Shown piece after piece: positions 5,365-33,391 of a DNA stretch of 33,683 nucleotides. Numbering within the stretch: the first letter of the stretch is position 1; each line of letters starts with the position of its first letter. Under the pieces are notes generated by a model. It searched no databases. It was not told the DNA's origin and saw only the letters and a program-made list of their open reading frames with translations. This DNA comes from a virus (lineage: Duplodnaviria > Caudoviricetes): IMG/VR virus record IMGVR_UViG_3300048882_000756, positions 1 through 33,683 of that record, one strand, 5' to 3'. The position numbers and the translations under genes were made by a program.

Positions 5365-5886
5365 TCAGATTGACGTATGTTGTCCTGTTGTTGTGTAGAT
5401 GCGCCCCACCCCTGAGATGGGCTTATAGGCGCACTGATGGAGGGCGGCCTTGATTACGGGCGCGGCGTCTCCTTCCCATAGCACTGCCCGCCTCGATGCG
5501 GACGCCCGATTAGCGGTGGCCGAGTCGTTGGTGACATAAACAGAGATCTGAGCAGTTCGACACACGCAGCCGCGCCAATGTTTGGTGGCGGCATCGAATG
5601 CTTCTGGGTCGTTTGTCTCGACACCAACAACGCACCGGCCCCTGACGGCACCACCCCACGGCACCACGTGTCGCTTGGCGTAGCCGGGTGGCTCATACAT
5701 GCCATCCAGAACGAGGACGTCTACTTCCCGCGCCTTGCGGAGCAGGAGATCTAGTCGGTAGTCTGTGGCCTCTTCAAGCTCCTCTATACGGTCGCGATAG
5801 TGAGACGGGGGGGAGACAACGGTTTCACCGGCCGCCTCCAGAAGCGCGGCGAGACCAATGGAGTCGCCCGTCAGGAACCACTTCAT
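5365..5886 (-). CDS. hypothetical protein
   Basis: 173-aa ORF with GAGGAG upstream and ATGA overlap. Confidence 0.6.
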   Translation of the reverse strand: MKWFLTGDSIGLAALLEAAGETVVSPPSHYRDRIEELEEATDYRLDLLLRKAREVDVLVLDGMYEPPGYAKRHVVPWGGAVRGRCVVGVETNDPEAFDAATKHWRGCVCRTAQISVYVTNDSATANRASASRRAVLWEGDAAPVIKAALHQCAYKPISGVGRIYTTTGQHTSI

Positions 5887-7200: not shown

Positions 7201-7890
7201 CTATACTCTCCAGTTGTTGTCGGCCTTCTCGGCGTTTACGATGAAATCTTGTAATGTCTTGAGGTCACCAGGGCTCAGGTCGTTGAGCTTCGAATCCCGC
7301 TGCTTCTTGACGAAGTCGTGTACGTCGGAGATCTTCACCCCGAGACTATACATACAGTCGATGAAGCCATCGACGCCAAAGGCGTCGTCACTCTCTTGGC
7401 TCTCTGCCTCCAGCCCTGGAGCCGGGGCGTCGTCTAGGGATGAATCATCTTCAGCGCCCTCGTATATGTGGAGCCCCAGGCCAAGAAAGGCGAGGCACTT
7501 CACCTGTGACCGGCGACGAGCCTTATTGATTGCAAATGCGTCTGGGTTCTTGATGGCCCGGTTGTTCGAGTCGATGACCGGATATGTGTGCTCCATGGGC
7601 TCATCGCCGGGGACGGTGATTACCGTGGTAACGCTCGCGCTACCGTCCCTGTAGTACATCACGTCCAGCTCAGACCCGTCTGCCTGGCGGAACATCTTCT
7701 CGTAGATTCGGGTTCCTGGGAAGTGGTCCTGAATCAGACGCCACGCAGATTGCCACCGAAGGTAGTTATATCGGCCCTTTTGCTCGACTTGGTTTTCCTC
7801 GAATACGCGGAGGATGGACAGGGCGCTCCACACTGTTGTTTCCTCCACTGGGCCTTCTCTGGGCTCCATCGTCACAAAGTCGTCAGACAT
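7201..7890 (-). CDS. Sak3/DUF1071-like single-strand annealing protein
   Basis: KGRYNYLRWQSAW, YPVIDSNNRAIKNPDAFAINKARRRSQVKCLAFLGLGLHIYEG. Confidence 0.8.
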   Translation of the reverse strand: MSDDFVTMEPREGPVEETTVWSALSILRVFEENQVEQKGRYNYLRWQSAWRLIQDHFPGTRIYEKMFRQADGSELDVMYYRDGSASVTTVITVPGDEPMEHTYPVIDSNNRAIKNPDAFAINKARRRSQVKCLAFLGLGLHIYEGAEDDSSLDDAPAPGLEAESQESDDAFGVDGFIDCMYSLGVKISDVHDFVKKQRDSKLNDLSPGDLKTLQDFIVNAEKADNNWRV

Positions 7891-9059
7891 TTTGCACCCC
7901 CGCCTTCTTTGCTCTCTCCATTGCTCTCTCCTTTGGCTTTCGTGATGGAGACCCCTATCGATGGTCCTCCAGGCCTTTTGTAAAGCTCCCAAAGCTCCGG
8001 TCGCTCACTCCGAAACCTCGCAGAATCAAACCTTCTTGTTCCCTCCCTATGCTTTATCATCACCACAGACTGGCCCGTTTCGGCACCAGCGTGGTTCATT
8101 AGGAGGCTCCTCAGCTCATTGTCGAGTCGGCTAACCTCATCGCCGTGGGCTTTCGCCTCCTTCGTCGCGCCTTTCTTCCTGTCGGCAGCCGCCTTTCTCT
8201 GGTTTAGGGCCTCCACCACCGAGCCATATAGTTCCGGCTCGTCATCTTCCAGAAGCATTGCGGGACCGGCCCCCTCGGCGGCCTCGCCACGAGCCTCCAT
8301 TAGGCCCATAGAACACTCGTCGCTGCCGTCAGTTGGCGGAAGGCGGCGGTTTACTACGTGTTCTCTGTACCATGTGGCGAGCCGGGGCAGCTCATCAGCC
8401 TCATACCGGGACGCTGACACGTAGTCTGACATCCCCACCTCTCCGGCCCTGCGAATCTGAACGTCGTATCCAGCGAGGGCCTCAGCGACAGCGTTGGGCC
8501 CCGCCGCATCGAGCAGCCTTACGAGAGCCCTAAAGTCCGAGTCATGGGCCTGCAGGACAATAAGGTAGTGTTCAGTCAGGCAGCCGTCATCAGGCAACTT
8601 TCCTTGGTCTCGAAGATGTCGAGACAGGACGCAAGAGTAGTGCGCGACCTGCGTCCAATAGTCTTCTCTCGACCAGTCCAGCTCCTCCCACCTGCTGTCG
8701 TATGTCTTAATTTCAGCAATCCCTACAGGCCGACCTCGGCCGTCGTAGACCAGCCGGTCTATCGTCGCGTGGATGGACGGGTGCGCCGGGTCGTATGTTA
8801 CGCCGCGACCCCACAGCTCCCCCAGCTGTCGACTACCATCGGCAAACGGGCCCATTTGCGCGGCCCGTAGCGCAACCGGTGCCTCTAGGACTATCCCCCT
8901 GTGCATCGCGAACGTCGTCTCCTTGCGGGGGTCAAGACCGAGGAGCTTTCGGTACGCCTTGTGCGGGCCGCCATACTTGCTCTTTCCCAAGATCATGGTC
9001 GCCGTTGTTCCACCGATAGTGTCGGTGGGTGGAGACATCCTGGTTTCGTCAACCCTCAT
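7872..9059 (-). CDS. YqaJ-like viral recombinase exonuclease
   Basis: IGGT...ILGKSKY, AMHRGIVLE, ATIDR, EIKT, YWTQV..Y and C-terminal FDSARFRSERPELWELY. Confidence 0.8.
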   Translation of the reverse strand: MRVDETRMSPPTDTIGGTTATMILGKSKYGGPHKAYRKLLGLDPRKETTFAMHRGIVLEAPVALRAAQMGPFADGSRQLGELWGRGVTYDPAHPSIHATIDRLVYDGRGRPVGIAEIKTYDSRWEELDWSREDYWTQVAHYSCVLSRHLRDQGKLPDDGCLTEHYLIVLQAHDSDFRALVRLLDAAGPNAVAEALAGYDVQIRRAGEVGMSDYVSASRYEADELPRLATWYREHVVNRRLPPTDGSDECSMGLMEARGEAAEGAGPAMLLEDDEPELYGSVVEALNQRKAAADRKKGATKEAKAHGDEVSRLDNELRSLLMNHAGAETGQSVVMIKHREGTRRFDSARFRSERPELWELYKRPGGPSIGVSITKAKGESNGESKEGGGAKCLTTL

Positions 9060-21255: not shown

Positions 21256-21275
21256 GAAAAACTAAGTACGTAAGA
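21256..21275 (-). repeat. degenerate repeat copy closing the leftward array
   Basis: gaaaaactaagtacgtaaga, between two convergent stop codons. Confidence 0.6.
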
Positions 21276-21302
21276 AGTTTGGCAACGACCGTAGCACGGA
21301 AG

Positions 21303-22805
21303 TCATACGGCCTCCACCCCTGGCGAGGGGGCCGTGATCTGATACTTCTTACGGATGGGGGTGTCGTCAATGCCAGAAACCCAGGACGGCGGGTGCCACC
21401 TGAGCACGAGCTTTCTTTCATGCTTCTCGATGTTGGCACCAAGGTCATCCTTCATCGGGCCAACCCTGTGCCCGTGCCAGTGACCCCTACGAACGTGGGA
21501 CCGCATCTTTGCATTATCTGCAGACATCATCTCTCGTAGCTCAGCTGACGCGCCTGCCCGTGCTCCAATCTCCACGGTCTTGTATCTGAGTTTCTCATAC
21601 GTGCGAAGCTCGCGCCTTGCGGCCTTCTCTAGCCGCTTCCTTGCCTTGCCCCCACGCGATGCTTCAGCGCGGCTGAGAAGGGCGCGGTGGCGCTCTAGTG
21701 CAGCCTCTGCCTCCTCCACAGAGGAACACTCGACGATGTCGGCCCACCCCGTAGGGGACTGGGCATACAGGATCGTGTTGACGATAATTCTCGTCAGCTT
21801 GAAACCGAGATACATACAATCTTCGTGCGAGCGGCCACTGTGATGCGAGCCCATCTCTTGAAGGGCCAAGAGCGCCAGCCGGTCCCGCGTTGGTTCATCA
21901 TTGAGGGCCCCCTTCACGGCCGCCGCTGTAAGGGAGAAGAACTCTTCGAGGTTGACGGAATGATTGAACAGGGCAGGCATCGGCTTCTCACGAGCGCCCT
22001 TCACCCCCACCAACATCACCGCGTCCAGCCATTTGAGGGCCCCCTCCACCTCTTCCTGGTCTATCCCGTGGTGAAGCGCCAGCATTGAGACCCTGTTGCA
22101 CCGATCTTTGGGCTCCCGACTGTCGGAAAGCACGGGCCGCCCATTTGGGCCCTCCCACCAATCGGACTTGGAGAGGTCATAGAGGAAGTCGTCGAGACCA
22201 TGGAGGCCCGAAATGCACCCGCTGTGGCGTCTAACGACGTCTAAAAGAGACACCCTTGATCCTTCCGGGGGGAGAGCCTCTACGATACTTGAGGTCAGGG
22301 CCCCTGCTTCAAGGGTCACGTAGATGCCCGCTATCGGCCGCCCCTCTCCCCCCGTGCCCTGCGGGTACTTGTACGACAGGCCCGAGCCCGAGAGGTCGAG
22401 AAAAAACGTCCCCCATGGCGAGCGCAAGAACGACCTCGGGACACTACGGATTTCTGTCTCAGCGAATGCGCGTGCCATCGTGGGGTTGAGGGAGACAACG
22501 GTGAGCCCGTCAGCCTCGAACTGGACCATGTTAGACAGAAGCTGGTGAGCATACATGCTGTCGAGTTCTTCAGCCTCTTCTTCGGGAAGGTGGTCGAACA
22601 GCATTATGTCCCTGTCCGCGTCTTTGAATTCGATGGGGCCGTTATACCCGTGCGGTGATATCCTGCCGCCAAGACCGAGGGTCATTGCCTCTAGCCCGGT
22701 ACATCCGTGGGCGCTGGCCCGCTGCGCGGCAGACGAGCGGACCTTGTCCAAAACGGTGCGAAGGCCGGGACACCGTCGACACGCCAGGTCAAAGTGTGTC
22801 TCCAT
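21303..22805 (-). CDS. large hypothetical protein with C-terminal HxRRGHW motif
   Basis: 500 aa; AGGAG RBS; RSHVRRGHWH...LRWHPPSWV tail seen in uncharacterised phage proteins. Confidence 0.75.
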   Translation of the reverse strand: METHFDLACRRCPGLRTVLDKVRSSAAQRASAHGCTGLEAMTLGLGGRISPHGYNGPIEFKDADRDIMLFDHLPEEEAEELDSMYAHQLLSNMVQFEADGLTVVSLNPTMARAFAETEIRSVPRSFLRSPWGTFFLDLSGSGLSYKYPQGTGGEGRPIAGIYVTLEAGALTSSIVEALPPEGSRVSLLDVVRRHSGCISGLHGLDDFLYDLSKSDWWEGPNGRPVLSDSREPKDRCNRVSMLALHHGIDQEEVEGALKWLDAVMLVGVKGAREKPMPALFNHSVNLEEFFSLTAAAVKGALNDEPTRDRLALLALQEMGSHHSGRSHEDCMYLGFKLTRIIVNTILYAQSPTGWADIVECSSVEEAEAALERHRALLSRAEASRGGKARKRLEKAARRELRTYEKLRYKTVEIGARAGASAELREMMSADNAKMRSHVRRGHWHGHRVGPMKDDLGANIEKHERKLVLRWHPPSWVSGIDDTPIRKKYQITAPSPGVEAV

Positions 22806-22810
22806 GACCG

Positions 22811-23137
22811 CTACTCCTTTCGCCTGTAGTAGGCACCTCTATCAGAGAGGCCTGCGCGGTAGCCGCACACATAGCTATAAGAGCCGGGAGGGTATCGGTC
22901 TGCGTCCTCTGGCGCATCGCACCCTGCGTCGTAGCCAGCCTCGTAGTCTACGTATTGACCACGCGCCATGTGGTCGTGTGTTCCGGGACCGACGTCCACG
23001 ACGGAGCCGCCGGTTCCCCACCATGCTCGTGATGGGCCCTCATCCTTCATAAAGCGAATGTAGTCGTTGCACTCGAACTCGTTGTCAGCCACGAAGACAA
23101 TCTCTTTTCGCTCGTTCTCAACTCCAAAGTATTTCAT
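22811..23137 (-). CDS. hypothetical protein
   Basis: GGAGG RBS; YEAGYDAG..Y..GYRAG pattern. Confidence 0.65.
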   Translation of the reverse strand: MKYFGVENERKEIVFVADNEFECNDYIRFMKDEGPSRAWWGTGGSVVDVGPGTHDHMARGQYVDYEAGYDAGCDAPEDADRYPPGSYSYVCGYRAGLSDRGAYYRRKE

Positions 23138-23167
23138 AGCTACCCTCCGCTCGTGTTATGTTTCCGC

Positions 23168-23234
23168 GTCGACACCGGGAAAGGTATCGGCGCAATTTCA
23201 AACCATTTAATGGGGTTGAATTCCCGGTGTCGAC
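23168..23234. other. intergenic long inverted repeat / structured RNA element
   Basis: Perfect 14-bp arms GTCGACACCGGGAA / TTCCCGGTGTCGAC enclosing an inner TTCAA..CCATT/AATGG..TTGAA stem. Confidence 0.75.
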
Positions 23235-23264
23235 TTTGCGCGTGCCACGTTCATTTCAGAAGAC

Positions 23265-23552
23265 CTAGATGCCTAAGTCCAGTCGGTCGTGGTGCATGGC
23301 CGAGGCCTGATTCAGGGCCTCTGCTTGATGTATCTCTGCCTGGAACAGCCGCGCCAGGTGTATGGCGTCTCCAACGCTGTAGACGGGATCCGGTTCCTCC
23401 AATCTATCGAGGGTGTCTATGGCCGCCCTTGCCAGCCGAAACAGGACAAAGGCCCGCTCAATTGAGGCCCCCTCTCCCGGCTTTAGGCAACCCCACCACG
23501 TGCTCTCCTTCATATGATACAGCTCCTCACTGAATTCCATCTTCGTGCCCAC
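23265..23552 (-). CDS. hypothetical protein
   Basis: 95-aa ORF with AGGAGG upstream. Confidence 0.6.
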   Translation of the reverse strand: MGTKMEFSEELYHMKESTWWGCLKPGEGASIERAFVLFRLARAAIDTLDRLEEPDPVYSVGDAIHLARLFQAEIHQAEALNQASAMHHDRLDLGI

Positions 23553-23554
23553 TC

Positions 23555-23962
23555 TCAGCCTCCTTTAGGTTTAAACTCCCTGAGATAGTGAAACGGCGTC
23601 TTCTGCCGAATCTTCCGTATTACGAACCCTTCAATCTGCCTAACCTGCTCACGGTGTATGCCGTGTATTTTGCCTATCTCCGTTAACGTTTGAGGTGGAT
23701 CGCCCCGAAGTCCGAACCTGCGACTGAGAACATCTTTGGCCCGCTCTCCATAGCGCTCCCCAACAGTGCGGACACACTCACCGACTGCGGCAACCAGCTG
23801 ACTATGGGCGGCCATTTCAAATGGGTCGCCATATTCATCGCCAGTCATGATTCCCCAGTCGCCCATCTGTTTTGTCAGCTGACTGGCGCTGTCCTCGCTT
23901 GCAGGCTCGGTCGTCCGCATATCATGAATGGTGGCCTCCGATAGTTTAGGCTCTCGCTTCAC
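23555..23962 (-). CDS. stand-alone sigma70 region 3.2/4 protein
   Basis: DPFEMA...ERAKDVLSRRFGLRGDPPQTLTEIGKIHGIHREQVRQIE..VIRKIR matches the RpoD/RpoS region-4 HTH; GTG start at 23962 with GGAGG. Confidence 0.8.
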   Translation of the reverse strand: MKREPKLSEATIHDMRTTEPASEDSASQLTKQMGDWGIMTGDEYGDPFEMAAHSQLVAAVGECVRTVGERYGERAKDVLSRRFGLRGDPPQTLTEIGKIHGIHREQVRQIEGFVIRKIRQKTPFHYLREFKPKGG

Positions 23963-23970
23963 GCCCCCTC

Positions 23971-23990
23971 CAAAAATCACATACGTAAGA
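23971..23990 (-). repeat. degenerate repeat copy abutting the RBS of the sigma-4 gene
   Basis: caaaaatcacatacgtaaga. Confidence 0.65.
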
Positions 23991-24021
23991 AGTATTGTCC
24001 CTCGCATAGGCGCGGATCTTA

Positions 24022-24423
24022 TCAGTAGTCATTTATCCTACTTTGAGCTTGAGAGGGTTGGGACGTCTTGGGGGGGTCTGGTGGCGAGACTACGTGCGAC
24101 CAATACCCCTGGAACAGGTGTTTTGCTGAACCAACCGGCCTGGCCGACCTCAAGTCGTCTGCGTGTGGCGCAAGGTGCGCTGCCAGATCGATGGCTTTCT
24201 TGAGTGCCACCTTTAACGCCTTTATTTCCGTCTCTCTTGGATCCTCTGCGTCCTCTGCGTCCAGGGATTTAATCCCCAGAAGAATGGCCACGCCGGCCAC
24301 AAAGGATCGAGAACTCTTTTGGTCGTCTGCAATTCGGTCCAGCGTAGAGATCGCCTTCTCGTCGAGCCTAACGCTCACCACCTTTTTTGTCTTCATAGAC
24401 TTCATGTTATCCCTCCTCCCCAC
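24022..24423 (-). CDS. ribbon-helix-helix (CopG-like) DNA-binding protein
   Basis: KKVVSVRLDEKAISTLDRIADDQKSSRSFVAGVAI; true start may be an internal ATG near 24406. Confidence 0.65.
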   Translation of the reverse strand: MGRRDNMKSMKTKKVVSVRLDEKAISTLDRIADDQKSSRSFVAGVAILLGIKSLDAEDAEDPRETEIKALKVALKKAIDLAAHLAPHADDLRSARPVGSAKHLFQGYWSHVVSPPDPPKTSQPSQAQSRINDY

Positions 24424-24589
24424 TTAGACCCTCTGCTTCGAGGAATTCTGCCAACCCGTCTGGCCCCCCGACCCGGCCGAGAAACTCGCCATCGGATAGG
24501 GCGTCCTGCTGCCTCTTCGTGCAGCGCTCCCAGACACCTTCAATCATCTCCATCATGTCCATGTCTTCCCGCGCCTTCTCGTCACTCAT
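24407..24589 (-). CDS. small acidic hypothetical protein
   Basis: 60 aa, coupled to neighbours. Confidence 0.5.
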   Translation of the reverse strand: MSDEKAREDMDMMEMIEGVWERCTKRQQDALSDGEFLGRVGGPDGLAEFLEAEGLSGEEG

Positions 24590-25070
24590 CTCTCACCCCC
24601 AATTGCTTTATCATTCCCCCCGTGAACCCTGCAGGCGTCCAGTGTCGACCCCAGGACTTTGCGTCAGACAGTACGGTGCGCCCCTGCCAGACCGCGCACC
24701 ATCGGACAAGGGTGCGGCCATTACGCTTGATGCGTGCACACTTGAGCGCGTACTCGTCGGGCCGACCCATAAGGTCTAGCTTCTGGGCCACGCGCTCAGC
24801 TGTGGCCCGCGTCATCCTATAGTCCTCTGCCTTGATGGCCAGAGCAGGGCCGTCGTCAGCCTTGGCGGCCCTGATGGACAGCGCCCGCTTTAGCTCGGTT
24901 ATCCGCTCTTGTGCCCCGGCGAGGGCAATGATCCTCTTCGCCCTCGCCGCGCCTTCGCAGTGCTCCAAAGACAAGACGTGCTTTGACACGTCTACCCTTC
25001 GCTCCTCCGCCCTTATGCACCCCTCGATTCCAGCCACGGTCAAGTTCAACGCAAGCTCTTCTGCCTTCAT
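24582..25070 (-). CDS. hypothetical protein
   Basis: 162 aa with GAGGAG RBS. Confidence 0.6.
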   Translation of the reverse strand: MKAEELALNLTVAGIEGCIRAEERRVDVSKHVLSLEHCEGAARAKRIIALAGAQERITELKRALSIRAAKADDGPALAIKAEDYRMTRATAERVAQKLDLMGRPDEYALKCARIKRNGRTLVRWCAVWQGRTVLSDAKSWGRHWTPAGFTGGMIKQLGVRDE

Positions 25071-25134
25071 TCTCTCTCTCCTCTCTGCCCGTCTCTGTTC
25101 TGTGGTCTATTAGTTATCACTCACCCCACCCCCC

Positions 25135-25485
25135 TCACGGGGTGGGGCTGGACGTCTCTGCCCTTTGCTCCATCCTTACAAGTGGCAGTCCGACCCGCCG
25201 CATGATGTACGCATTGGTCATTGGTGAGATGGCGAACTCGACCCTCCAGACAAGGTCTCCCGTGAATTTTGCACGGTGCGTCTTTTGCACAGTGACGTGG
25301 CCTTCGCCGCAGGCCCCAAGAATGGACGCAAACGTCCGTGCGTCCTCCTGCCCCCGAAATCTTACCCAGTCGTAGATGCCGTTCTCCCCCATCTTTCGAG
25401 CGGCCTCGCGGTAGTTCGCAGTCCGTCGTCGGGCCGCCTTCATCGCGTCGGTCTGCCTTCGCGCTTCTGGATACATGCACTTCAT
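25135..25485 (-). CDS. hypothetical protein
   Basis: 116 aa with GGAGGTGA RBS. Confidence 0.6.
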   Translation of the reverse strand: MKCMYPEARRQTDAMKAARRRTANYREAARKMGENGIYDWVRFRGQEDARTFASILGACGEGHVTVQKTHRAKFTGDLVWRVEFAISPMTNAYIMRRVGLPLVRMEQRAETSSPTP

Positions 25486-25502
25486 TTCTCACCTCCACCA
25501 TT

Positions 25503-25532
25503 ATCTTATGTCGATAAACCCAACATAATCAA
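25503..25532 (-). promoter_or_regulatory. candidate sigma70-type promoter
   Basis: TTGATT-18nt-TAAGAT with a T-rich upstream tract in an AT-rich gap. Confidence 0.35.
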
Positions 25533-25564
25533 AACAAAACAACAAGCACATGAATTCATTAACG

Positions 25565-25605
25565 AAAAATCATGTACGTAAGACTTCTACTTCGTCCCGT
25601 AACGA
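25565..25605 (-). repeat. repeat copy (degenerate distal half)
   Basis: aaaaatcatgtacgtaagac-ttctacttc-gtc-ccg-taacga. Confidence 0.85.
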
Positions 25606-25892
25606 GGCCCCAGACACACCCCCCCCTTCACCCCAAGCGCCGTGCCCATCGACGACGGAATCGTCACCAATCGGCCGTATCGTCTCTCGAACGCTGGCAG
25701 AAGCTCCTCACAGCGCTTAATGACGCGCCCCTTCAAAGCATCGTCCCACGTCGCGCCCATGTACTTAGCTTGAGACCTGCACTGATCCTCTTGTGCGCCG
25801 TCTACGTGCCCAGCGTGAGGCACAAGACACCCCCATGTGAAGATGAGATCCCTCGCAATCCAGTCTACTTGTCTCGTGTTCAGCCTCTTCAT
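25587..25892 (-). CDS. hypothetical protein
   Basis: 101 aa; stop lies inside the repeat. Confidence 0.6.
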   Translation of the reverse strand: MKRLNTRQVDWIARDLIFTWGCLVPHAGHVDGAQEDQCRSQAKYMGATWDDALKGRVIKRCEELLPAFERRYGRLVTIPSSMGTALGVKGGVCLGPRYGTK

Positions 25893-25975
25893 TCCCCTTG
25901 CTCCCTCGCGTCTATAGCGAAAAGGATTAGGACAATGGCTCCGATAAACAAGAACGCGAACAGTCCATCACTCAT
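25889..25975 (-). CDS. 28-aa single-TM peptide (not in ORF track)
   Basis: MSDGLFAFLFIGAIVLILFAIDAREQGE*; AAGGAG RBS right after a repeat; ATGA overlap with the next gene. Confidence 0.6.
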   Translation of the reverse strand: MSDGLFAFLFIGAIVLILFAIDAREQGE

Positions 25976-25988
25976 TTCTATCTCCTTC

Positions 25989-26008
25989 AAAATTCATGTA
26001 CGTAAGAC
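25989..26008 (-). repeat. repeat copy
   Basis: aaaattcatgtacgtaagac. Confidence 0.9.
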
Positions 26009-26023
26009 CCTGGTGGACCCTTC

Positions 26024-26359
26024 CTAGAAGGAGGGGTCCGAATACTTGTCGTACCCATTGGTCCAGATATTGGCGAAGCTGTGTCCCTTCGGTTTAAAGC
26101 GTTTGGCCCTACGTCGCCACGTCGCCGCGCTCACTCGCCCATTCGGGTTGGGGGTGAACTCGTAGCCCTGGCATTCGCTCAGTCCGTTGCTGTCGGTGCG
26201 CTTCGCGTTGGCCGCCCTGTAGTAAATGGTCTTGCCACTCTTGGTCCACCCTATGATGGTGATCGGATAGCGGTCGCTTCCTACGCTGTAGCTTCCACCC
26301 TGACCAGCGCCGATAGTTTGCCCGTTGGGCAGTGTAATTGTCCCCTGGTTCAACATCAT
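26024..26359 (-). CDS. hypothetical phage protein
   Basis: Start ATG 26359 after repeat and GGAG; GSDRYPITII...YSDPSF. Confidence 0.7.
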   Translation of the reverse strand: MMLNQGTITLPNGQTIGAGQGGSYSVGSDRYPITIIGWTKSGKTIYYRAANAKRTDSNGLSECQGYEFTPNPNGRVSAATWRRRAKRFKPKGHSFANIWTNGYDKYSDPSF

Positions 26360-26372
26360 TCTTCTCCACTTC

Positions 26373-26414
26373 AAAAATCCATGTACGTAAGACCGTAGCA
26401 AGGCCTTGTGACGT
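26373..26414 (-). repeat. repeat copy with distal half-site
   Basis: aaaaatccatgtacgtaa-gaccgtagcaaggccttg-tgacgt. Confidence 0.9.
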
Positions 26415-26432
26415 AAGGGTTTCAAGGAATCG

Positions 26433-26732
26433 TTACGTCGGGTTGGCCGCCCTAATGATAAAGTTGTGTCCGCTGTCGGGCGTTCGATGCCACCCCTCGG
26501 TAGCCTTGAGCCAGATCTTCCCCACCTCTGCTTCGCATTCGGCGGCAATGGCCGTGGGCTCTTCGTATATCCCCCTTCCGAAGTGTTCAGAAATCAGCCT
26601 TACCTCACTCTCGGTCCTATCCATCAACCAAGACGAGATTGCGTACAAGCAATACTCTGCACCCTCCTCGTTACTCCAGTCTTGAAGATCGACCTCGAAG
26701 GTGAAGCCCTTTTCCTCGATAATGGCAATCAT
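26433..26732 (-). CDS. hypothetical acidic protein
   Basis: 99 aa with ATGA overlap. Confidence 0.6.
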   Translation of the reverse strand: MIAIIEEKGFTFEVDLQDWSNEEGAEYCLYAISSWLMDRTESEVRLISEHFGRGIYEEPTAIAAECEAEVGKIWLKATEGWHRTPDSGHNFIIRAANPT

Positions 26733-26941
26733 GATTGAAGCCTTGTTAGGCCTGGCCTGTACGTGCCAGACCCCCTGGCATGGGTGTACCCCTCAGAGTG
26801 CGCCGCTCTCATTGCTGCAGCCTTTGTCGGTAGCCCAGCGCCGCTTGCGTCCATGTAGTCCAGGTAGTCGCAACAGACAAAGTATCCGCCGATGTCCTCG
26901 AATATACGGGCCGTTTTCATTTTTATTCGTCCTCTCATCAT
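26729..26941 (-). CDS. hypothetical protein
   Basis: 70 aa following a repeat copy. Confidence 0.55.
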   Translation of the reverse strand: MMRGRIKMKTARIFEDIGGYFVCCDYLDYMDASGAGLPTKAAAMRAAHSEGYTHARGSGTYRPGLTRLQS

Positions 26942-26952
26942 CGAACCCCCTC

Positions 26953-26972
26953 AAAATCCATGTACGTAAGAC
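26953..26972 (-). repeat. repeat copy
   Basis: aaaatccatgtacgtaagac. Confidence 0.9.
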
Positions 26973-26986
26973 TTCCTGGGCTTCGT

Positions 26987-27238
26987 TTATTGTTCCTCGG
27001 AAACCCAGAACGTACCGAAGGATACCTCGCCCCCCTCCGTGGAAATGCTTGCAGGCATTTCGCCCTCAAGGTCGCCTATGACGTCATTCATAAAGATTTC
27101 CCGCACCTGTTTTTCAATGACGCCTTTTGAACAGCGCTTGTAGACGTTGTCCTCGTCTACATCATCGAGGCCAATATGTTCTGCTAGCGTTTCCGCATAC
27201 ACCTTGAACGACACCTCAACACATAATGTGATTTGCAT
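26987..27238 (-). CDS. hypothetical acidic protein
   Basis: 83 aa with TAATG coupling. Confidence 0.6.
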   Translation of the reverse strand: MQITLCVEVSFKVYAETLAEHIGLDDVDEDNVYKRCSKGVIEKQVREIFMNDVIGDLEGEMPASISTEGGEVSFGTFWVSEEQ

Positions 27239-27423
27239 TAGTCTTCCCCCTCCTCTTCCCTGAAGTCCTCAACCAGTTCGCTGTCCTCGAACGCGAACGA
27301 AAGCTCCACAACACACGCAGACCTAAGCCGTGCTGCCTCTATTGCTACTTGGGCCCGTTCATACTCCATACCCCCGTCGATATTGCTTGGGTCATTTGTT
27401 ACGATATACTTATAGATTATCAT
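27238..27423 (-). CDS. hypothetical acidic protein
   Basis: ATG 27423 preceded by GGAG (ORF track extends it to TTG 27471). Confidence 0.55.
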   Translation of the reverse strand: MIIYKYIVTNDPSNIDGGMEYERAQVAIEAARLRSACVVELSFAFEDSELVEDFREEEGED

Positions 27424-27476
27424 TATACTCTCCAAGATTGTTAGACATTCTAACAGAATGCTACGTTTCAAACTTC

Positions 27477-27518
27477 AAAAATCCATGTACGTAAGACCTT
27501 ATGATGGTCTCATTACGT
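27477..27518 (-). repeat. full repeat copy with bulged hairpin
   Basis: aaaaatccatgt-acgtaa-gacc-ttatgat-ggtc-tca-ttacgt. Confidence 0.92.
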
Positions 27519-27523
27519 GCACC

Positions 27524-28390
27524 TCAGTGAAGGAGAAAGCCGATTGCATCGCCACCCTTCCTGGTCGTCGCATCGCACATACCGCAATCATTGCAGGTCA
27601 CTGGTCGGCTTCGGCCATTACGCTCTTTAATCGTGGCCCCGGTTTGACTTGGACATATGGTTATCCGTCTACCCTTGGGAGTTGTGAAGGTTTCACCGGA
27701 CCAAGTTTTGAGGCCCTTCCTTTCCCACCGCTTAGACTTTGAAGGCCTTGTCTTTGGGTCGATAGCAGGCACAACCACAGCTACTCGCCAACCGCTATCC
27801 ATAACCCGATCTGCCTGTTCCAGCGTGTCGCATGAGCCCATCACCAAACCCTTAAGGTGTGAGCCTTTTGTTTCGGGAAAGTGTGTGTATCCGAGTAGGC
27901 CCTTAAGGCCGTACTCCCTGGCCGTGTTTCTCCATTCGTCCATTTGGCTAACGGTGAAGACGTTGGGATCACCCCCGACTGCAATGCGGACGAAGTTCGC
28001 CGATACAGCTGAATCCTTCAGCACTTCGCCTAAGTTAGACCTACGCTTGTGCTTGTCTTTGGCATGGGCTTTTTGCATGGAGCCCTGCGCTAATTGCGAA
28101 CTTCCAAACCAATGGTAACAACCGTCCTCCAAAAACCTGCACCCCTCGCATGATGCCCTAGCCTCATCTCTTGTCTCACCAACGTGGCCTTGAGGCATAT
28201 TTCCGGTCTTTGGCTGCTTCGACTGTGCAGCAAATAGGTGGTTAACCAGCGGTTTAGTTTTGAACATGGGCAACGATTCACGAGTGTTGTCACACTCGAC
28301 CGCACCCCATTGGTCATAACCGTTGTCCCTATCATCGTCCGCTGGATCATACGTCCAATTTTCGGCGTATTTGTACACTTGTGCAGTCAT
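27524..28390 (-). CDS. Cys-rich phage protein, Gp88/DUF7227-like (possible Fe-S enzyme)
   Basis: KTGNMP, CEGC...CY, RIAVGGD, GYTH, CPSQ, CNDCGMC, IGFLLH. Confidence 0.65.
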   Translation of the reverse strand: MTAQVYKYAENWTYDPADDDRDNGYDQWGAVECDNTRESLPMFKTKPLVNHLFAAQSKQPKTGNMPQGHVGETRDEARASCEGCRFLEDGCYHWFGSSQLAQGSMQKAHAKDKHKRRSNLGEVLKDSAVSANFVRIAVGGDPNVFTVSQMDEWRNTAREYGLKGLLGYTHFPETKGSHLKGLVMGSCDTLEQADRVMDSGWRVAVVVPAIDPKTRPSKSKRWERKGLKTWSGETFTTPKGRRITICPSQTGATIKERNGRSRPVTCNDCGMCDATTRKGGDAIGFLLH

Positions 28391-28416
28391 GGCTCACCTA
28401 CTTTCACCTACTTTAG

Positions 28417-28455
28417 AAATTCATGTACGTAAGACCCTAGTCGAGGTCCGTACAT
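28417..28455 (-). repeat. repeat copy with alternative hairpin
   Basis: aaattc-atgtacg-taa-gacc-ctagtcga-ggtc-cgtacat. Confidence 0.9.
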
Positions 28456-28880
28456 ACGTAGACCACCTCACACATTCCGTATCCCAGGGAGACGATTTCA
28501 TCGCCTTCACATAGTGAACACTCTGAATCTTCGTCGTGGGGTTCCCCTTGGCAGTTCCAACAAGCCGCTTCGCCGCTGCTAGTCCAGTGGCCAATTTCGA
28601 CCCACCCCTTGGGTGGCGCAGGTTTTCCGTATAGCCTGCATTCAATGGCTGTGCGGAAAGTAAAGTCATATTGGCTTTGTCCGAATTCCTGTTTTTTGGC
28701 CAGTGCCTGTACTTCAGAGTGTTCGAGTAGTTCGCTCTCAGATACGTAGTCTGGTGGACCCTCGTACCAGTGCGCTCTTACTGGTTCCCATTCGTCCGGG
28801 AAATCAGGATGAGGAACATGGAGTTCTCCACCCCCTAGACCGAAGACACACTTCACCCTTTCAGTTTCTAACTGATCCAT
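28437..28880 (-). CDS. hypothetical protein with CxxC...CxxC
   Basis: 147 aa; TAGGTGG RBS; stop in the repeat loop. Confidence 0.7.
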   Translation of the reverse strand: MDQLETERVKCVFGLGGGELHVPHPDFPDEWEPVRAHWYEGPPDYVSESELLEHSEVQALAKKQEFGQSQYDFTFRTAIECRLYGKPAPPKGWVEIGHWTSSGEAACWNCQGEPHDEDSECSLCEGDEIVSLGYGMCEVVYVCTDLD

Positions 28881-28906
28881 GATCCACCTACTTTCAACTA
28901 CTTCAG

Positions 28907-28947
28907 AAATTCATATACGTAAGACCTTACAGTGGTCTCATTACGTA
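28907..28947 (-). repeat. full repeat copy with bulged hairpin
   Basis: aaattcata-tacgtaa-gacc-ttacagt-ggtc-tca-ttacgta. Confidence 0.92.
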
Positions 28948-28951
28948 AGGC

Positions 28952-29545
28952 TTAGTACCTCTCGCCATTGGCGAGGTACTCAGTGTCAGTTTCAGCAAGG
29001 TCTTCCTTGATGGTGTCTTCGCTGTAGTACCAAGCGAGTTGTGATTCTAGCGCTTCGAGTAGCGCATGCTCGATCTGTTCGATGCACCCTTCCATGGCTT
29101 CGCTTGTCTCATCAAAAAGCTCATGGGTATAGTCGCTGGACCAATGGTCCTTCCACGTCCTACGATAGGATGCACGCTGATATGACAGCCCATAGAAATG
29201 CCTTTGTTGAAGCGCTTGTAATTCTCTCACAGCATCATGAAGAGACGCCCATTGTGGGTACTCGGCCATGATTGCAGGTAGAGATCCAGCAGTGTACGAA
29301 TAACTACCCTCTAACTTTGCGAATGAGCCACCGCAACCAATGGAGCCAAAATACATTTCTGTGGAACTGCAGAATCCAAGGGCCCTTGCTACCTCAAGAC
29401 ACATGCCCCTCGCAAACTCTAGACCACATTCATCAAGGTCTGCATTCCAACGATATTCAAGTTCATCTTGAACCGCCTTATCTTGGGCGTCTTCGCTCAA
29501 CTCGCTCCACGTAAACACTTCGATCTTTTTGATTTCAACTCTCAT
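28952..29545 (-). CDS. acidic hypothetical phage early protein
   Basis: VFTWSELSEDAQDKA...EYLANG; start ATG 29545 with AGGTGA RBS. Confidence 0.7.
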   Translation of the reverse strand: MRVEIKKIEVFTWSELSEDAQDKAVQDELEYRWNADLDECGLEFARGMCLEVARALGFCSSTEMYFGSIGCGGSFAKLEGSYSYTAGSLPAIMAEYPQWASLHDAVRELQALQQRHFYGLSYQRASYRRTWKDHWSSDYTHELFDETSEAMEGCIEQIEHALLEALESQLAWYYSEDTIKEDLAETDTEYLANGERY

Positions 29546-29560
29546 GTTTTCACCTACCTC

Positions 29561-29601
29561 AAAATTCATGTACGCAAGACCACAGAAGGGTCTCATTAGG
29601 G
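29561..29601 (-). repeat. repeat copy
   Basis: aaaattcatgtacgcaa-gacc-acagaag-ggtc-tca-ttaggg. Confidence 0.9.
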
Positions 29602-30366
29602 ATCAGGCGTGAAGATACCTTTATCTTTCAGGGCCTCGAAAATCCGGTCCTCGTCGGGGGTACGTTCATGGATCGAGTACCATGACAGCCCATCGCAGAT
29701 TTCATGCGGGTTTCCTGTTATCTCTCCGTCATTTGCCCAAGCTATTGACTTGCACGTCTCTTCTACGTGGTCATCAAACATCTCACCGTCTAGCTTCTCC
29801 ATGCAGTCAAGGCATACGGGCGAGCCATGGTAGGGGTCTCTTGGATCGGGAAATGGCGATCCAGCATCATAGGTATCATGACCGTTGTTTGGACCATCAC
29901 CAATAACGGTTTCACACTCCCCACATATCCGAGCACAGCCCGGACAATGCTTCTCGCCTTCGATGGTTAACCAGTTCTCTGGCTCGCCATGGTCATAGGC
30001 CTCTTCATGGCCATGGTGTCCACCATAAGAAACGCCTAGACGTGAAGTAGATCTCATCATCCTAGTCCAGTCGGAATAATGGGTCTCTTCTCCACCTATC
30101 CAAACCCGCAGGGGTTCGCCTTTCAGGCGTCCGATGATTTCGTCTTCCTCTGGATCGAGACCCACCTTAACCCCACAGCTGTGACACTCACAGCCTTCGA
30201 TGGGTACGGGCTCGGGCTTCTCCCATTCCTCACCCAGACTGGGCCCACAACAAGGGCAACCAAGGCCTTGGTTAAAAAGGACCGCTTCCCAGCGGTACAT
30301 GTCCCCATGGTCAACCCCATATCGGTTCCATGGCTCACTGCAAACTTTGCATGAAACGTCCATCAT
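29596..30366 (-). CDS. Cys-rich (multiple CxxC) hypothetical protein
   Basis: 256 aa; CKVC, CPCC, CHSC, CPGC, CGEC, CLDC; AGGTGA RBS. Confidence 0.7.
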   Translation of the reverse strand: MMDVSCKVCSEPWNRYGVDHGDMYRWEAVLFNQGLGCPCCGPSLGEEWEKPEPVPIEGCECHSCGVKVGLDPEEDEIIGRLKGEPLRVWIGGEETHYSDWTRMMRSTSRLGVSYGGHHGHEEAYDHGEPENWLTIEGEKHCPGCARICGECETVIGDGPNNGHDTYDAGSPFPDPRDPYHGSPVCLDCMEKLDGEMFDDHVEETCKSIAWANDGEITGNPHEICDGLSWYSIHERTPDEDRIFEALKDKGIFTPDP

Positions 30367-30379
30367 TCACCTACTTCAG

Positions 30380-30419
30380 AAATTCATGTACGCAAGACGT
30401 TTAGGGTTTCCCCTTACGT
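30380..30419 (-). repeat. repeat copy with distal half-site
   Basis: aaattcatgt-acgcaa-N18-ttacgt. Confidence 0.9.
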
Positions 30420-30449
30420 GCACGCACGTGGTCTTAAGAATATACGGTA

Positions 30450-30503
30450 CTATTGATTATACGGTACCCCCCTCCCTCCAAAGGGAGGGGGGAACATCAA
30501 TAG
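30450..30503. other. long hairpin in a non-coding inter-repeat unit
   Basis: CCCCCCTCCCT-ccaa-AGGGAGGGGGG inside CTATTGAT/ATCAATAG arms. Confidence 0.7.
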
Positions 30504-30541
30504 AACGATACCGGTACTCTTTATAGAAATGTTCTAGTCAG

Positions 30542-30560
30542 AAATTCATGTACGCAAGGC
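30542..30560 (-). repeat. repeat copy overlapping the stop of the upstream gene
   Basis: aaattcatgtacgcaaggc. Confidence 0.85.
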
Positions 30561-30947
30561 TTTAACTACGTCCATATATTTCTTTGCCAGGTTCTCACCA
30601 GTGGCCTCACTCAAGACGTAGTCGAAGCACTCGGCAATGTGATCCTTGATGTCGTTTCTGTTTCGACCGCTCACCTTGATGTCGAACCCATAGAACGACG
30701 GTCGCACTGTTACCCGATGCTCTGTCCATCCAACATAATATCCAAGGTCGTTCATGTGGTGGAACGCGGTAGAGAAAACCAATTTCTCTTCTGTGGTCTT
30801 TTCAACGTCGATTGACGTGCCAGAATCGAAGCCAGACCCACTAGGTAGGTACTCAGAAATGATCGGAGCCATTTCTTCAAATACGATACTTGCTGGGTGT
30901 CGCGTCAATCCCGAAATTAATCGGGCTAGTGATTGCCTATTGCTCAT
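30546..30947 (-). CDS. hypothetical phage protein
   Basis: LPSGSGFDSG...FHHMNDLGYYVGWTEH..V.PSF. Confidence 0.75.
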   Translation of the reverse strand: MSNRQSLARLISGLTRHPASIVFEEMAPIISEYLPSGSGFDSGTSIDVEKTTEEKLVFSTAFHHMNDLGYYVGWTEHRVTVRPSFYGFDIKVSGRNRNDIKDHIAECFDYVLSEATGENLAKKYMDVVKALRT

Positions 30948-30961
30948 TTTATCCCCTAATG

Positions 30962-30980
30962 AAAATCATGGTCGTAAGAC
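30962..30980 (-). repeat. repeat copy
   Basis: aaaatcatggtcgtaagac. Confidence 0.8.
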
Positions 30981-31034
30981 TTCTAAGCCTTTGCATATGG
31001 TAGGGCCCAGTGCCTGGGCCCTATACCTTGATGG

Positions 31035-31133
31035 TCACACCCTGATGGTCCTACCGGTCTTCTCGACCACGGCCGTAGACGTCAACGAAACAAGGGCAAC
31101 AAACGAAATGATGGTGTAAGTGATGACAAGCAC
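31035..31133 (-). CDS. 32-aa hydrophobic peptide (not in ORF track)
   Basis: GTG start after GGAGAG; MLVITYTIISFVALVSLTSTAVVEKTGRTIRV*. Confidence 0.45.
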   Translation of the reverse strand: MLVITYTIISFVALVSLTSTAVVEKTGRTIRV

Positions 31134-31150
31134 ACTCTCTCCAATGCCCC

Positions 31151-31247
31151 TTAGAGGCCAATGGTTGACGTCTAAGGCGCGGTATACCCTTGACCTATGC
31201 CAGGGTGTTGGTTTTGGTTTCTTTAGCTTCTATCGGCCGTTATGGGC
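31151..31247 (-). repeat. diverged ~100-nt intergenic leader, copy 1
   Basis: Aligns nearly ungapped to 32341-32437 (CGTCTAAGGCG, CTATGCCA, GCTTCTRTCGG shared). Confidence 0.55.
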
Positions 31248-31679
31248 CTAGTTTTCGATGATTCTGATTTTGGAGCGAATCCCAAGACCTTTAGCGATAG
31301 CCTCTAGGCTTTCGCGAATTGCATATGAACCTACGCCACCAATGTAGGACCGGTCACTTCCACGGTGGAGCGTAATGCCTGCAGAGTGTAGGGCTTCGCC
31401 TATAGCTGTCGATTCTTTGCAGTAGCCATACCCGCCAGCTGTGCCATGACCGGAACTGTGAAAGCTAGAATCCTTAACACCAGACAGCCAGACAGAAGCG
31501 TATACCGTCGAAGCGTTGCTACTCCGACCCATCCAAACCCGAACGGTTACAGGTGAGACAATCTCACCCTTGTAGATTCCAACAACGCTATATGAGGAAG
31601 TTTGTTCCTTCTGACCATAAAGGTTTCGGCCATTTTGGTGATGTCCAGAAAACTTCGCCTTCATTGGTGCGTCTATCAT
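31248..31679 (-). CDS. hypothetical phage protein
   Basis: SGHGTAGGYGYCKESTA; GGAG RBS. Confidence 0.75.
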   Translation of the reverse strand: MIDAPMKAKFSGHHQNGRNLYGQKEQTSSYSVVGIYKGEIVSPVTVRVWMGRSSNASTVYASVWLSGVKDSSFHSSGHGTAGGYGYCKESTAIGEALHSAGITLHRGSDRSYIGGVGSYAIRESLEAIAKGLGIRSKIRIIEN

Positions 31680-31682
31680 TTT

Positions 31683-31925
31683 TCATTTCTCCGCTGATGG
31701 GTGGGCATACTCTCTTATGATGAGCCTCTCACCCTTTGAAATTATGTAGTGAGTTCCTGAGTTACTCCAGCACATGCAGTAGACGCGATAGAGCCTTCCC
31801 TTGTATTTAACTTTCCAAGGCGTTGTGAGCTTTGAGCCATAACCGCTAGCAGTTTGGATAAGTCCGTTTTTGTGAAACCATAGAGGCGCATCTATCAGCT
31901 GTGCAACTTCGTCTAGATAGGTCAC
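31683..31925 (-). CDS. hypothetical phage protein
   Basis: TASGYGSKLTT..KVKYKGRLYRVY..CWSNSGT; likely GTG start 31925 after GGAG and a degenerate repeat. Confidence 0.7.
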   Translation of the reverse strand: MTYLDEVAQLIDAPLWFHKNGLIQTASGYGSKLTTPWKVKYKGRLYRVYCMCWSNSGTHYIISKGERLIIREYAHPSAEK

Positions 31926-31936
31926 TTCGACACTCC

Positions 31937-31957
31937 AAAAAACTATGAACGCAAGAC
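31937..31957 (-). repeat. degenerate repeat copy
   Basis: aaaaaactatgaacgcaagac abutting GGAG. Confidence 0.55.
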
Positions 31958-32049
31958 TCTCGACGGTCCGCATAATGTGTAGACCTATAGCCAGAAGGGC
32001 AATTTCAGGGTCGACCCCATCGGGGGTCGTAACCCCCTGGAATCATTGA

Positions 32050-32319
32050 TTAATGGGCCAAGGTCGTAGGCTTAGAATCCCACCATCGGATACCCCAAAC
32101 GGTCCCGGATCGCGCCTTCTCCCGTGGATCGCCCATTGGATGACAATCAGCAACGCCCCCACTGTATGCGACGGAGTAGGCCGCACCTGGTGCCATGTTA
32201 AGGGGTGGTCTGATAGGGCTATCGCATACGATAACGCCTTCACGGTAGCTAAGGTGCGGATCAAAGAGGGCCCATAATTCCGGCTCGTTGTCCCCATTGA
32301 AGTGTTTTTTCATTGCCAT
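32050..32319 (-). CDS. hypothetical protein
   Basis: 89 aa with GGAG upstream. Confidence 0.5.
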   Translation of the reverse strand: MAMKKHFNGDNEPELWALFDPHLSYREGVIVCDSPIRPPLNMAPGAAYSVAYSGGVADCHPMGDPREKARSGTVWGIRWWDSKPTTLAH

Positions 32320-32340
32320 GCTCTCACTCCATTGTTGCCA

Positions 32341-32437
32341 TTAATGGCCCACAGTGGGCGTCTAAGGCGTGTTTAGGTATTGGCTATGCCATGGGATAGG
32401 CTGTGCCTTTCCCTGGCTTCTGTCGGTTGTTCTAGGC
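32341..32437 (-). repeat. diverged ~100-nt intergenic leader, copy 2
   Basis: See 31151-31247. Confidence 0.55.
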
Positions 32438-32520
32438 TGTCCTAGCTCTTGATGGCAGCAGACTCTTGTCCCTTGTCCCTAGCTGCAGTTCCTCGCGGCC
32501 GATTCTCACTTTTCGCCAAT

Positions 32521-32835
32521 TCATTTGTTGACCTTGAACACGATGTCCTCGGTACTCCAAATGGCGCGGATGCCGCCACAAGGACCGCCTAACTCTTCAA
32601 AGCCTAAGCGGTACAGCCCAACATTGCCGATGGGTAGGCCACAAGGCTTTAACGTGAGGCTATCACCGCTAAAAGCTCTGTCTTCACTCAAGTGGGCACC
32701 AAACCGTTGATAGAGGCCTCGGCACCCATAAAGAAGACAAGCGAAGTCATCACGTATCACCTTCGCTTGGTCGGCGTTGACGTGTATCGGAATCTTGATG
32801 ACCAAGTCTTGGTTGATGGTAGCTTCGAAAATCAT
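32521..32835 (-). CDS. hypothetical protein
   Basis: 104 aa with AGGGGA RBS. Confidence 0.6.
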   Translation of the reverse strand: MIFEATINQDLVIKIPIHVNADQAKVIRDDFACLLYGCRGLYQRFGAHLSEDRAFSGDSLTLKPCGLPIGNVGLYRLGFEELGGPCGGIRAIWSTEDIVFKVNK

Positions 32836-32874
32836 GGAATCCCCTAGTTGTTAGATGTTCTTAAACTATGGTGC

Positions 32875-33204
32875 TCATTTGCTGCACCGTGCCAGTCTCT
32901 TGAGTAGGCGGCGTTGGACCCTATGAGGGGTCAGCGTATCGCCGTCCAACAGTATCAGCGCAGAGAAGTCATATTCGCCCTCATAACTATGCGAAGTGGC
33001 ATCGAAATCAGGGGTGTAAAAGTCCGCCTTCACCTCGAAATAAACCTGCATACTGGTGTCAGACTGAAAAATACGGCGAATGTCCTTGGTCTGCTGTACC
33101 CCGTCATGGACGAAAGAGACGTTTCCCCCGACAATACAAAGCACTTCGCCAATTTCCGGACCCCGGTAAGCAACAACCCGGCTGATTTCGCTGTATCCGA
33201 TCAT
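32875..33204 (-). CDS. hypothetical protein
   Basis: 109 aa with AAGGGGA RBS. Confidence 0.6.
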   Translation of the reverse strand: MIGYSEISRVVAYRGPEIGEVLCIVGGNVSFVHDGVQQTKDIRRIFQSDTSMQVYFEVKADFYTPDFDATSHSYEGEYDFSALILLDGDTLTPHRVQRRLLKRLARCSK

Positions 33205-33361
33205 TTCGTTCCCCTTAATCCAAAAAAAGCTCTGTCTTCACTGTCTCGCCTTGCGCTCGCCTTCTGACCACCTTTGAACTGTCAAGCCGCTGTCACCTAC
33301 TTGGGTCGCTGGCTGTCTCGCTCTTGGCTGCCTTGGTTGCGCTCTCCCTCTATCCACAAAC

Positions 33362-33391
33362 AGAATAGCCTGATTATGTGATGCTGGTCAA
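33362..33391 (-). promoter_or_regulatory. candidate sigma70-type early promoter at the head of the leftward array
   Basis: TTGACC-18nt-TATTCT. Confidence 0.45.

Follow-up and report, generated by a model that had tools for sequence, protein, structure and literature searches.

Repeated elements that accompany individual phage genes have already been published as the promoter-early stem-loop (PeSL) cassettes of T4-type phages, the motif of the cluster EC Microbacterium phages, and the start-associated sequences (SAS) of the cluster K mycobacteriophages. The subject of this analysis is a repeat of the same general kind, a 19-nt motif in a small-gene array of a Caudoviricetes virus. The window analyzed is the whole linear IMG/VR virus record IMGVR_UViG_3300048882_000756, of 33,683 bases, with a CheckV completeness of 28%.

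In the passages of the literature cited here, recombination between the promoter elements that flank a PeSL cassette deletes or inserts a gene and leaves a chimeric copy, with no dedicated enzyme (PMC2839356, PMC4122927); the crossovers fall at varying points (PMC2839356), and PeSLs carry a sigma70-like (or MotA) promoter plus a stem-loop over ∼100 bp. The cluster EC motif, to which the account assigns no known function, is 18 bp long, asymmetric, and present in 12 co-oriented copies in short intergenic gaps, upstream of the ribosome site; the phages that carry it also have genes for a sigma factor and a RecET-like pair (PMC7302621). SAS and extended SAS (ESAS) are polar repeats found where non-core genes begin, and their upstream portion varies more; the SAS extends over the ribosome-binding position and base-pairs with 16S rRNA, and the ESAS has 17-bp inverted repeats (PMC3203893). 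Integron arrays hold small unrelated open reading frames (ORFs) between repeated sites and gain or lose them unit by unit (PMC3053210).

In anatomy, the window motif most resembles the cluster EC motif, being ∼18 bp long, asymmetric, co-oriented, and placed before non-structural genes, upstream of their ribosome site. EC copies, however, also lie among structural genes, and gain or loss bounded by the motif is not described in the cited account, whereas the window motif has an upstream box in common with a distant relative; because the sequences are unrelated, the resemblance is one of kind, not of homology. In behavior, the motif is like the PeSL: it is a repeated, co-oriented, putatively regulatory element in a variable early region, and single genes are gained or lost between copies with one chimeric copy left, as seen here in three events. 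Unlike the PeSL, it has no sigma70 consensus, offers only 19 to 45 nt of homology, and has stem-loops at a minority of copies, and the phage is not T4-like; because the sigma70 promoter is lacking, the motif is not filed as a PeSL. A hairpin of ≤ -15 kcal/mol stands within 80 nt upstream of 5 of 14 copies, compared with 14% of 150 sites drawn at random; the rank test gives p=0.12 and the binomial test p=0.036. Its position differs from that of the SAS, as the core ends 10 to 80 nt before the start and 2 of 14 copies have no downstream gene, and its inverted arms are partial and in the minority. Unlike integrons as portrayed in PMC3053210, the array has no RYYYAAC...GTTRRRY cores, no palindrome of 57 to 141 bp, no integrase found, and no reordering, and the motif is conserved in sequence rather than in structure, unlike attC. 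Thus, among the analogues named by the original prediction, the motif works like the PeSL cassettes, but it lacks the position of the SAS, the core of attC, and the sigma70 promoter of the PeSL itself.

The window element is real, conserved, and lineage specific. With moderate confidence, and from sequence comparison, we read it as a lineage-specific, non-sigma70 promoter before small non-structural genes, the copies of which double as short homology seams. No description of it was found in the paper listings and main-text passages searched. The locus brings PeSL-type modular turnover to a marine phage that is not of the T4 type, with a repeat of ∼20 to 45 nt that has no sigma70 boxes, and it puts three natural copy-to-copy events on record.

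A bipartite motif at gene junctions

The motif occurs in 14 copies at gene junctions between 21258 and 31957, all on the minus strand, which is the coding strand of the small-ORF array:

21258-21276 (-): degenerate copy after the last leftward gene, 27.1 bits, with a GC hairpin upstream and no convincing downstream gene on its strand
23973-23991 (-): degenerate copy, with the GTG of the sigma region-4 gene 10 nt downstream
25566-25584 (-): copy with the start 80 nt downstream and a perfect TTACG upstream box at 25598-25602
25990-26008 (-): copy within the 21 nt (25989-26009) that are duplicated in metagenome run X12 around ∼727 extra bases
26375-26393 (-): copy with a partial inverted upstream arm
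26954-26972 (-): motif copy
27479-27497 (-): copy with a partial inverted upstream arm and the start 55 nt downstream
28417-28435 (-): copy B, the left end of a 490-bp unit
28907-28925 (-): copy A, the end common to the 490-bp unit and a 655-bp unit
29562-29580 (-): copy at the 655-bp unit's right end
30380-30398 (-): motif copy
30542-30560 (-): copy containing the stop of ORF 30546-30947, with an ORF-less hairpin unit downstream
30962-30980 (-): copy with a strong GC stem-loop upstream
31939-31957 (-): degenerate copy, the rightmost

A weight matrix run over the window returned exactly these copies at 27 to 37 bits (22 to 36 bits with each left out in turn), compared with 9.2 bits for the next-best site of the window and a shuffled maximum of 17; searched as a pattern, the motif had 11 matches within three mismatches, 5 of them exact, versus 0 in 100 shuffles. 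The co-oriented repeat of at least 14 copies that had been claimed is therefore real, with none elsewhere in the window, and the unit lengths reported with it (424, 385, 579, 525, 938, 490, 655, 818, 162, 420, and 977 bp) stand. Column statistics add a box overlooked in the original prediction, (T/C)TA(C/T)G at columns -18 to -14, so that the element is bipartite, (T/C)TA(C/T)G-N13-GTCTTRCGTACATGRATTT. Nine of the 19 core columns are invariant, and the TTACG of the core (columns 4 to 8) lies 21 nt, or about two helical turns, from the box at -18.

Conservation was assessed against four strain contigs (L022, L027, L031, and L032) that are 88 to 96% identical to the window. The core differs from them at 6 of 209 sites, compared with 246 of 1,504 third-codon sites (p=4e-9); all six changes are in variable columns and none is in the nine invariant ones. 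The 20 nt upstream of the core are similarly quiet (6 of 221 sites). These four contigs, as strains of the window phage, make up one-third of the 12 distinct loci found in a metagenome scan for the motif, and the other eight loci share the motif alone, in single copies. Among viral contigs, the strict motif gave one match, a single copy in an unrelated contig, and the bipartite pattern gave 33 loci, none of them with a protein related to the window. Two loci with two copies each (L130 and L131) presumably represent the ends of duplicated capsid genes in unrelated large viruses.

Where a gene follows the copy (12 of 14), the end of the core lies 10 to 16 nt before the next start in 8 cases and 26, 26, 55, and 80 nt before it in the others, and a separate ribosome site always stands in between. 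The upstream stop, in turn, falls anywhere from -14 to +93 relative to the core. Because the spacing to the next start is narrow and that to the upstream stop is scattered, the element is tied more to the following gene than to the preceding one. Upstream stops had been placed inside the motif, which is true only of 30546 within the 19-nt core; all others end 1 to 92 nt upstream of it, those at 25587, 28437, and 29596 by 2, 1, and 15 nt. Likewise, the motif had been described as running straight into the ribosome site in most copies; a AGTAGGTG-type site follows 4 of the 12 copies, but the exact GAAGTAGGTGA is directly behind the core in only 1. Of the two copies without a convincing downstream gene (21258-21276 and 30542-30560), the second precedes a structured unit:

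30399-30541 (-): ORF-less unit of 143 nt with a long hairpin (fold z=-4.4), a candidate small RNA or terminator

This unit has no Rfam match. In L022, three C-G pairs of its hairpin are changed on both sides to U-A; this compares two sequences only, and 67 of 500 shuffles were as high. A copy ahead of an ORF-less structured unit agrees with a promoter rather than a translation signal.

Gain and loss of units between copies

Clean whole-unit differences run from copy to copy in 3 of 3 cases among the strain joints listed. Two of these concern neighboring units:

28436-28925 (-): 490-bp unit with a 147-aa ORF (28437-28880), missing from L031 and from run X8, where a single chimeric copy is left
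28926-29580 (-): 655-bp unit with a 197-aa ORF (28952-29545; phrog_5162/10310), missing from run X12, where a single chimeric copy is left

L031 aligns to 27331-28439 and then to 28885-29222, without the 490-bp unit, and run X8, which shows the junction letters of L031, was counted with it as one event. The 655-bp unit is missing from run X12, where 28899 is joined to 29562. In another X12 contig, ∼727 extra bases are flanked on both sides by the 21 nt of 25989-26009, an extra unit of ∼748 bp. Each of these differences may be a gain or a loss. Copy-specific letters place the 490-bp crossover immediately downstream of the core, in the ribosome-site block that the copies share, the 655-bp crossover inside the core, and the crossover of the X12 insertion within the 21-nt duplication. 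No reordering or inversion was found in any listed strain contig, all pieces being collinear, and no joints were found in four near-identical populations, represented by assembled contigs, which drop rare variants.

Turnover is not confined to the motif. Among the joints (15 of 18) and loose ends (21 of 37) listed, replacements occur at 9 of 14 motif junctions and 5 of 11 motif-free junctions (p=0.43), a count that leaves out two joints with a side of 21 (22021-33128 and 24418-24582) and short or AT-rich loose ends. Several further gene replacements among strains fall in the motif-free right end (32049-33223). Because motif-free junctions are also hit, the motif is a seam in use rather than a requirement for turnover; the proposal that gene gain and loss break at the motif holds for the three clean insertions and deletions listed, with replacements found at junctions of both kinds. 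Two genes of the array were themselves subject to change:

23555-23962 (-): sigma-70 region-4-only protein with a motif copy ahead, a candidate but doubtful reader of the motif
24022-24405 (-): ribbon-helix-helix/Arc-like protein, replaced in X8 and X12 with the motif kept

X12 likewise retains the motif copy adjacent to the sigma region-4 gene, whose body is skipped or diverged there.

Promoter, operator, and other readings of the motif

Relatives of the phage were identified through portal and terminase. The window weight matrix detected no copies in G001, G002, or G003, and a loose motif pattern had no match in G006, G008, G009, or G010 and one 2-mismatch site in G007. Arrays of small genes in some of these genomes carry repeats of their own. 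For example, in G001 (portal 62% identical), a block with a plain sigma70 promoter, TTGACC-17-TATATT, recurs three times before small genes, and G002 has a comparable leftward array that ends in a phrog_6160 homologue, of the same family as window ORF 21303-22805. The leftward small-gene array of G006, a complete genome of 75,141 bases (terminase 54% and portal 42% identical to those of the window phage), contains seven strong and two borderline co-oriented copies of AATTACG-N9-AAAAACCTTTATAG, and one copy of this type is present in G007. The geometry of the G006 element is TTACGT-17-TATAGA, in which TTACG lies 20 nt before CTT (TTACG-N15-CTT). When TTACG is scored along the window copies, the peak is at this very offset, 20 nt from the invariant CTT (column -18), with 42 of 70 letters matched; the next best of 36 offsets gives 29, and the null has a mean of 17 and a maximum of 36 in 100,000 draws. 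A TTACG-N15-CTT geometry held in common at such a distance points to what may be an undescribed class of promoter in an unknown marine host lineage. In G014, three TTACG-N15-CTT matches all fall within a single very long ORF and were discarded as chance.

If the element is a promoter, RNA polymerase (the host enzyme, perhaps with some additional factor) would open the A/T-rich 3' end, and transcription would start at about columns 19 to 24, just ahead of the ribosome-binding site. Recombination between copies could draw on two proteins encoded elsewhere in the window:

7201-7992 (-): Sak single-strand annealing protein, a candidate agent of copy-to-copy recombination
7872-9059 (-): YqaJ/RecE-like exonuclease

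This pair might align two copies over 19 to 45 nt of imperfect homology and thereby delete or insert the interval; one chimeric copy would remain, so that the next gene keeps its expression signal. Whole units are likely gained and lost in this way, through ordinary recombination and not by a dedicated cassette enzyme. Rad52-like phage recombinases, the family that includes Sak, favor short, diverged homologies according to the portion of PMC3945230 cited here, where the minimum homology of Red-beta is quoted as 23 to 27 bp.

Several observations weigh against a promoter that doubles as a seam. The 21 nt of homology at the X12 insertion are below the minimum quoted for Red-beta (PMC3945230). 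Although far more conserved than third-codon sites, the core is only marginally more conserved than other intergenic sequence (6 of 209 versus 44 of 673 sites, p=0.058). For two copies the start is 55 and 80 nt away, and the copy at 21258-21276 is directed at a convergent gene's end. None of the 14 copies has a TTGACA/TATAAT-type sigma70 site, as the original prediction had already claimed. The comparison of boxes with G006 was set up after the data had been seen; full profiles of the two elements, although best in the shared register, score negative (-6.5, next -8.8), so that only the two boxes are common to both, and the window hexamer after CTT (ACGTAC) is unlike the TATAGA of G006. In G002, only ribosome-site words are repeated in the array. 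No reader was identified, and G006 has no match to sigma region 2 or 4, which makes a shared phage sigma factor an unlikely reader. Finally, the window is partial, with more than half of the genome unseen. Sigma54, sigma32, ECF, and Bacteroidetes-type promoter consensuses, compared by eye, did not fit the motif.

Stoperators of the cluster A mycobacteriophages are asymmetric, polar sites at gene junctions that sometimes overlap stop codons, and the motif may, in a comparable manner, be an operator rather than a core promoter. A phage or host protein would then bind a pair of TT(A/G)CG-like boxes spaced 21 bp apart, where it would activate, repress, or road-block transcription, with recombination between copies the same by-product. 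The spacing of ∼two helical turns between the core TTACG and the box at -18 would suit such binding, as would the copy at 21258-21276, which has no gene to drive, the stop codon inside one copy, and the presence among the array genes of an Arc-like gene and of a sigma region-4 gene that follows a motif copy of its own. We nevertheless regard an operator as rather doubtful, since the neighboring motif persists in strains that have a replacement for the Arc-like gene, the array's sole repressor-like one, or a sigma region-4 body that is skipped or diverged, no other promoter is apparent for the array genes (the window as a whole has 8 sigma70-like sites, compared with 8.2 expected), and the G006 element has a promoter-like spacing of 17 nt. 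Compared with stoperators, the window copies are longer and confined to one array, and neither a conserved repressor nor a temperate module was found; in particular, the window, a partial genome, contains no repressor or integrase of a temperate cycle.

Alternatively, the element could act in RNA, as a processing site or a translation hand-over that cuts or restarts a long early transcript at each junction. Its strict polarity and closeness to ribosome sites agree with this, as do the several upstream stops that end within 16 nt of the core and the hairpins with z ≤ -2 at 5 of 14 copies. Nine copies, however, have no fold with z ≤ -2, and an Rfam scan gave a single chance snoRNA match (26 bits, compared with a cut-off of 60 bits) away from the copies. 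The element, moreover, lies upstream of the ribosome site and not on it, it has two copies without a downstream gene, and the rigid bipartite spacing common to the window and G006 suits recognition of double-stranded DNA. An RNA-level role is, on this evidence, improbable.

Most improbable of all is a dedicated system of site-specific cassette recombination whose enzyme would come from the host or from a gene in the unseen part of the genome: the copy-to-copy course of the 3 clean differences listed, the duplication of exactly the 21-nt motif in X12, the half-palindrome AGACC-N7-GGTCT with a 3-nt bulge that forms a partial inverted arm at some copies, the serine resolvase/recombinase gene adjoining the motif-bearing region in G006 (L035, 12963-13679) and G007 (L168, 8686-9393), and the at least 36 kb of genome unseen speak for it, but one crossover lies outside the core, the order of genes is collinear, turnover is equally common at motif-free junctions, and the sites lack the expected anatomy. 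Specifically, the 7-nt spacers of the half-palindrome are unrelated (0 of 91 pairs identical, mean identity 0.30), the best 11-bp arms match at 5 to 7 of 11 positions, the same as background, unlike those of dif/Xer-type sites, and attC cores (RYYYAAC...GTTRRRY) are absent within 100 nt on either side of all 14 copies, as originally stated. The tyrosine or serine recombinase that had been proposed as a search target was not found in the 33.7-kb window, a partial genome (no PF00589 or PF00239 match), nor was PF00589 found in five relatives, one complete genome among them; no HUH nuclease was seen among the 51 of 290 window ORFs covered by profile scans, none of which was a dedicated search for such nucleases. 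We would assign the same very low probability to a phage-borne, integron-like array in which each copy is both a promoter and a recombination site for an unrecognized enzyme from the unseen half of the genome; were it real, counter-defense and host-takeover genes, one of them AcrVA2-like, would be swapped as expression-ready units. Of the original proposal of a shuffling site, a promoter/operator, or both, "both" comes closest in that insertions and deletions break at copies, and position, conservation, and relatives favor the promoter/operator part, whereas a dedicated shuffling site is unsupported.

Gene content and other observations

Two further genes of the array were annotated:

21303-22805 (-): AcrVA2-like (PF26125) protein, the final gene of the array
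27524-28390 (-): DUF7227 protein, 288 aa

The assignment of ORF 21303-22805 to PF26125 has an Atlas score of 0.97 (218 of 256 features, with the family on 56 to 66% of cluster members), and an identical protein, P0003, has a precomputed PF26125 domain. P0003 is encoded on a contig of 69,638 bp, which places more than half of the genome (at least 36 kb) outside the window. Within the scanned ORFs, the window encodes a terminase, a portal, a DnaB-like helicase, a Holliday junction resolvase, and an SSB. ORF 5365-5886 had no Atlas match above 0.76, and a 500-aa ORF of the window had no homologue among viral contigs. Six runs contain half of the stretch or more, all of them DNA metagenomes from hydrothermal vents, and the record may itself derive from one of the six. 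A terminase search of genome contigs gave five loci at 39 to 47% identity in four taxa, which is uninformative for the host.

The sigma region-4 protein has an 80%-identical homologue, P0002, with an N-terminal extension that holds the residues the motif would encode in frame, hinting that the P0002 gene may likewise sit behind a motif copy. G006 encodes an RNA polymerase alpha-C-terminal-domain-like protein and a Mom-family protein.

Some strain differences and repeats do not involve the motif. X8 and X12 both lack a 215-bp stretch without a motif at either end (24640-24856, within ORF 24582-25070). A second intergenic repeat, in two copies of 32 nt with 75% identity (31148-31179 and 32338-32369), lies close to strain replacement breakpoints at 31262 and 32334. 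Ahead of the motif-free rightmost genes is a sigma70-like TTGACC-18-TATTCT at 33362-33391 (-), which is only a lead because the number of such sites in the window is that expected. Just beyond 33677, contigs of several runs continue into a palindrome with TTGACA in both directions, and four related repeats, TTGAC...GTCAA, are found toward the right end of G002; these palindromes and repeats are possibly an operator or terminal promoter cluster.

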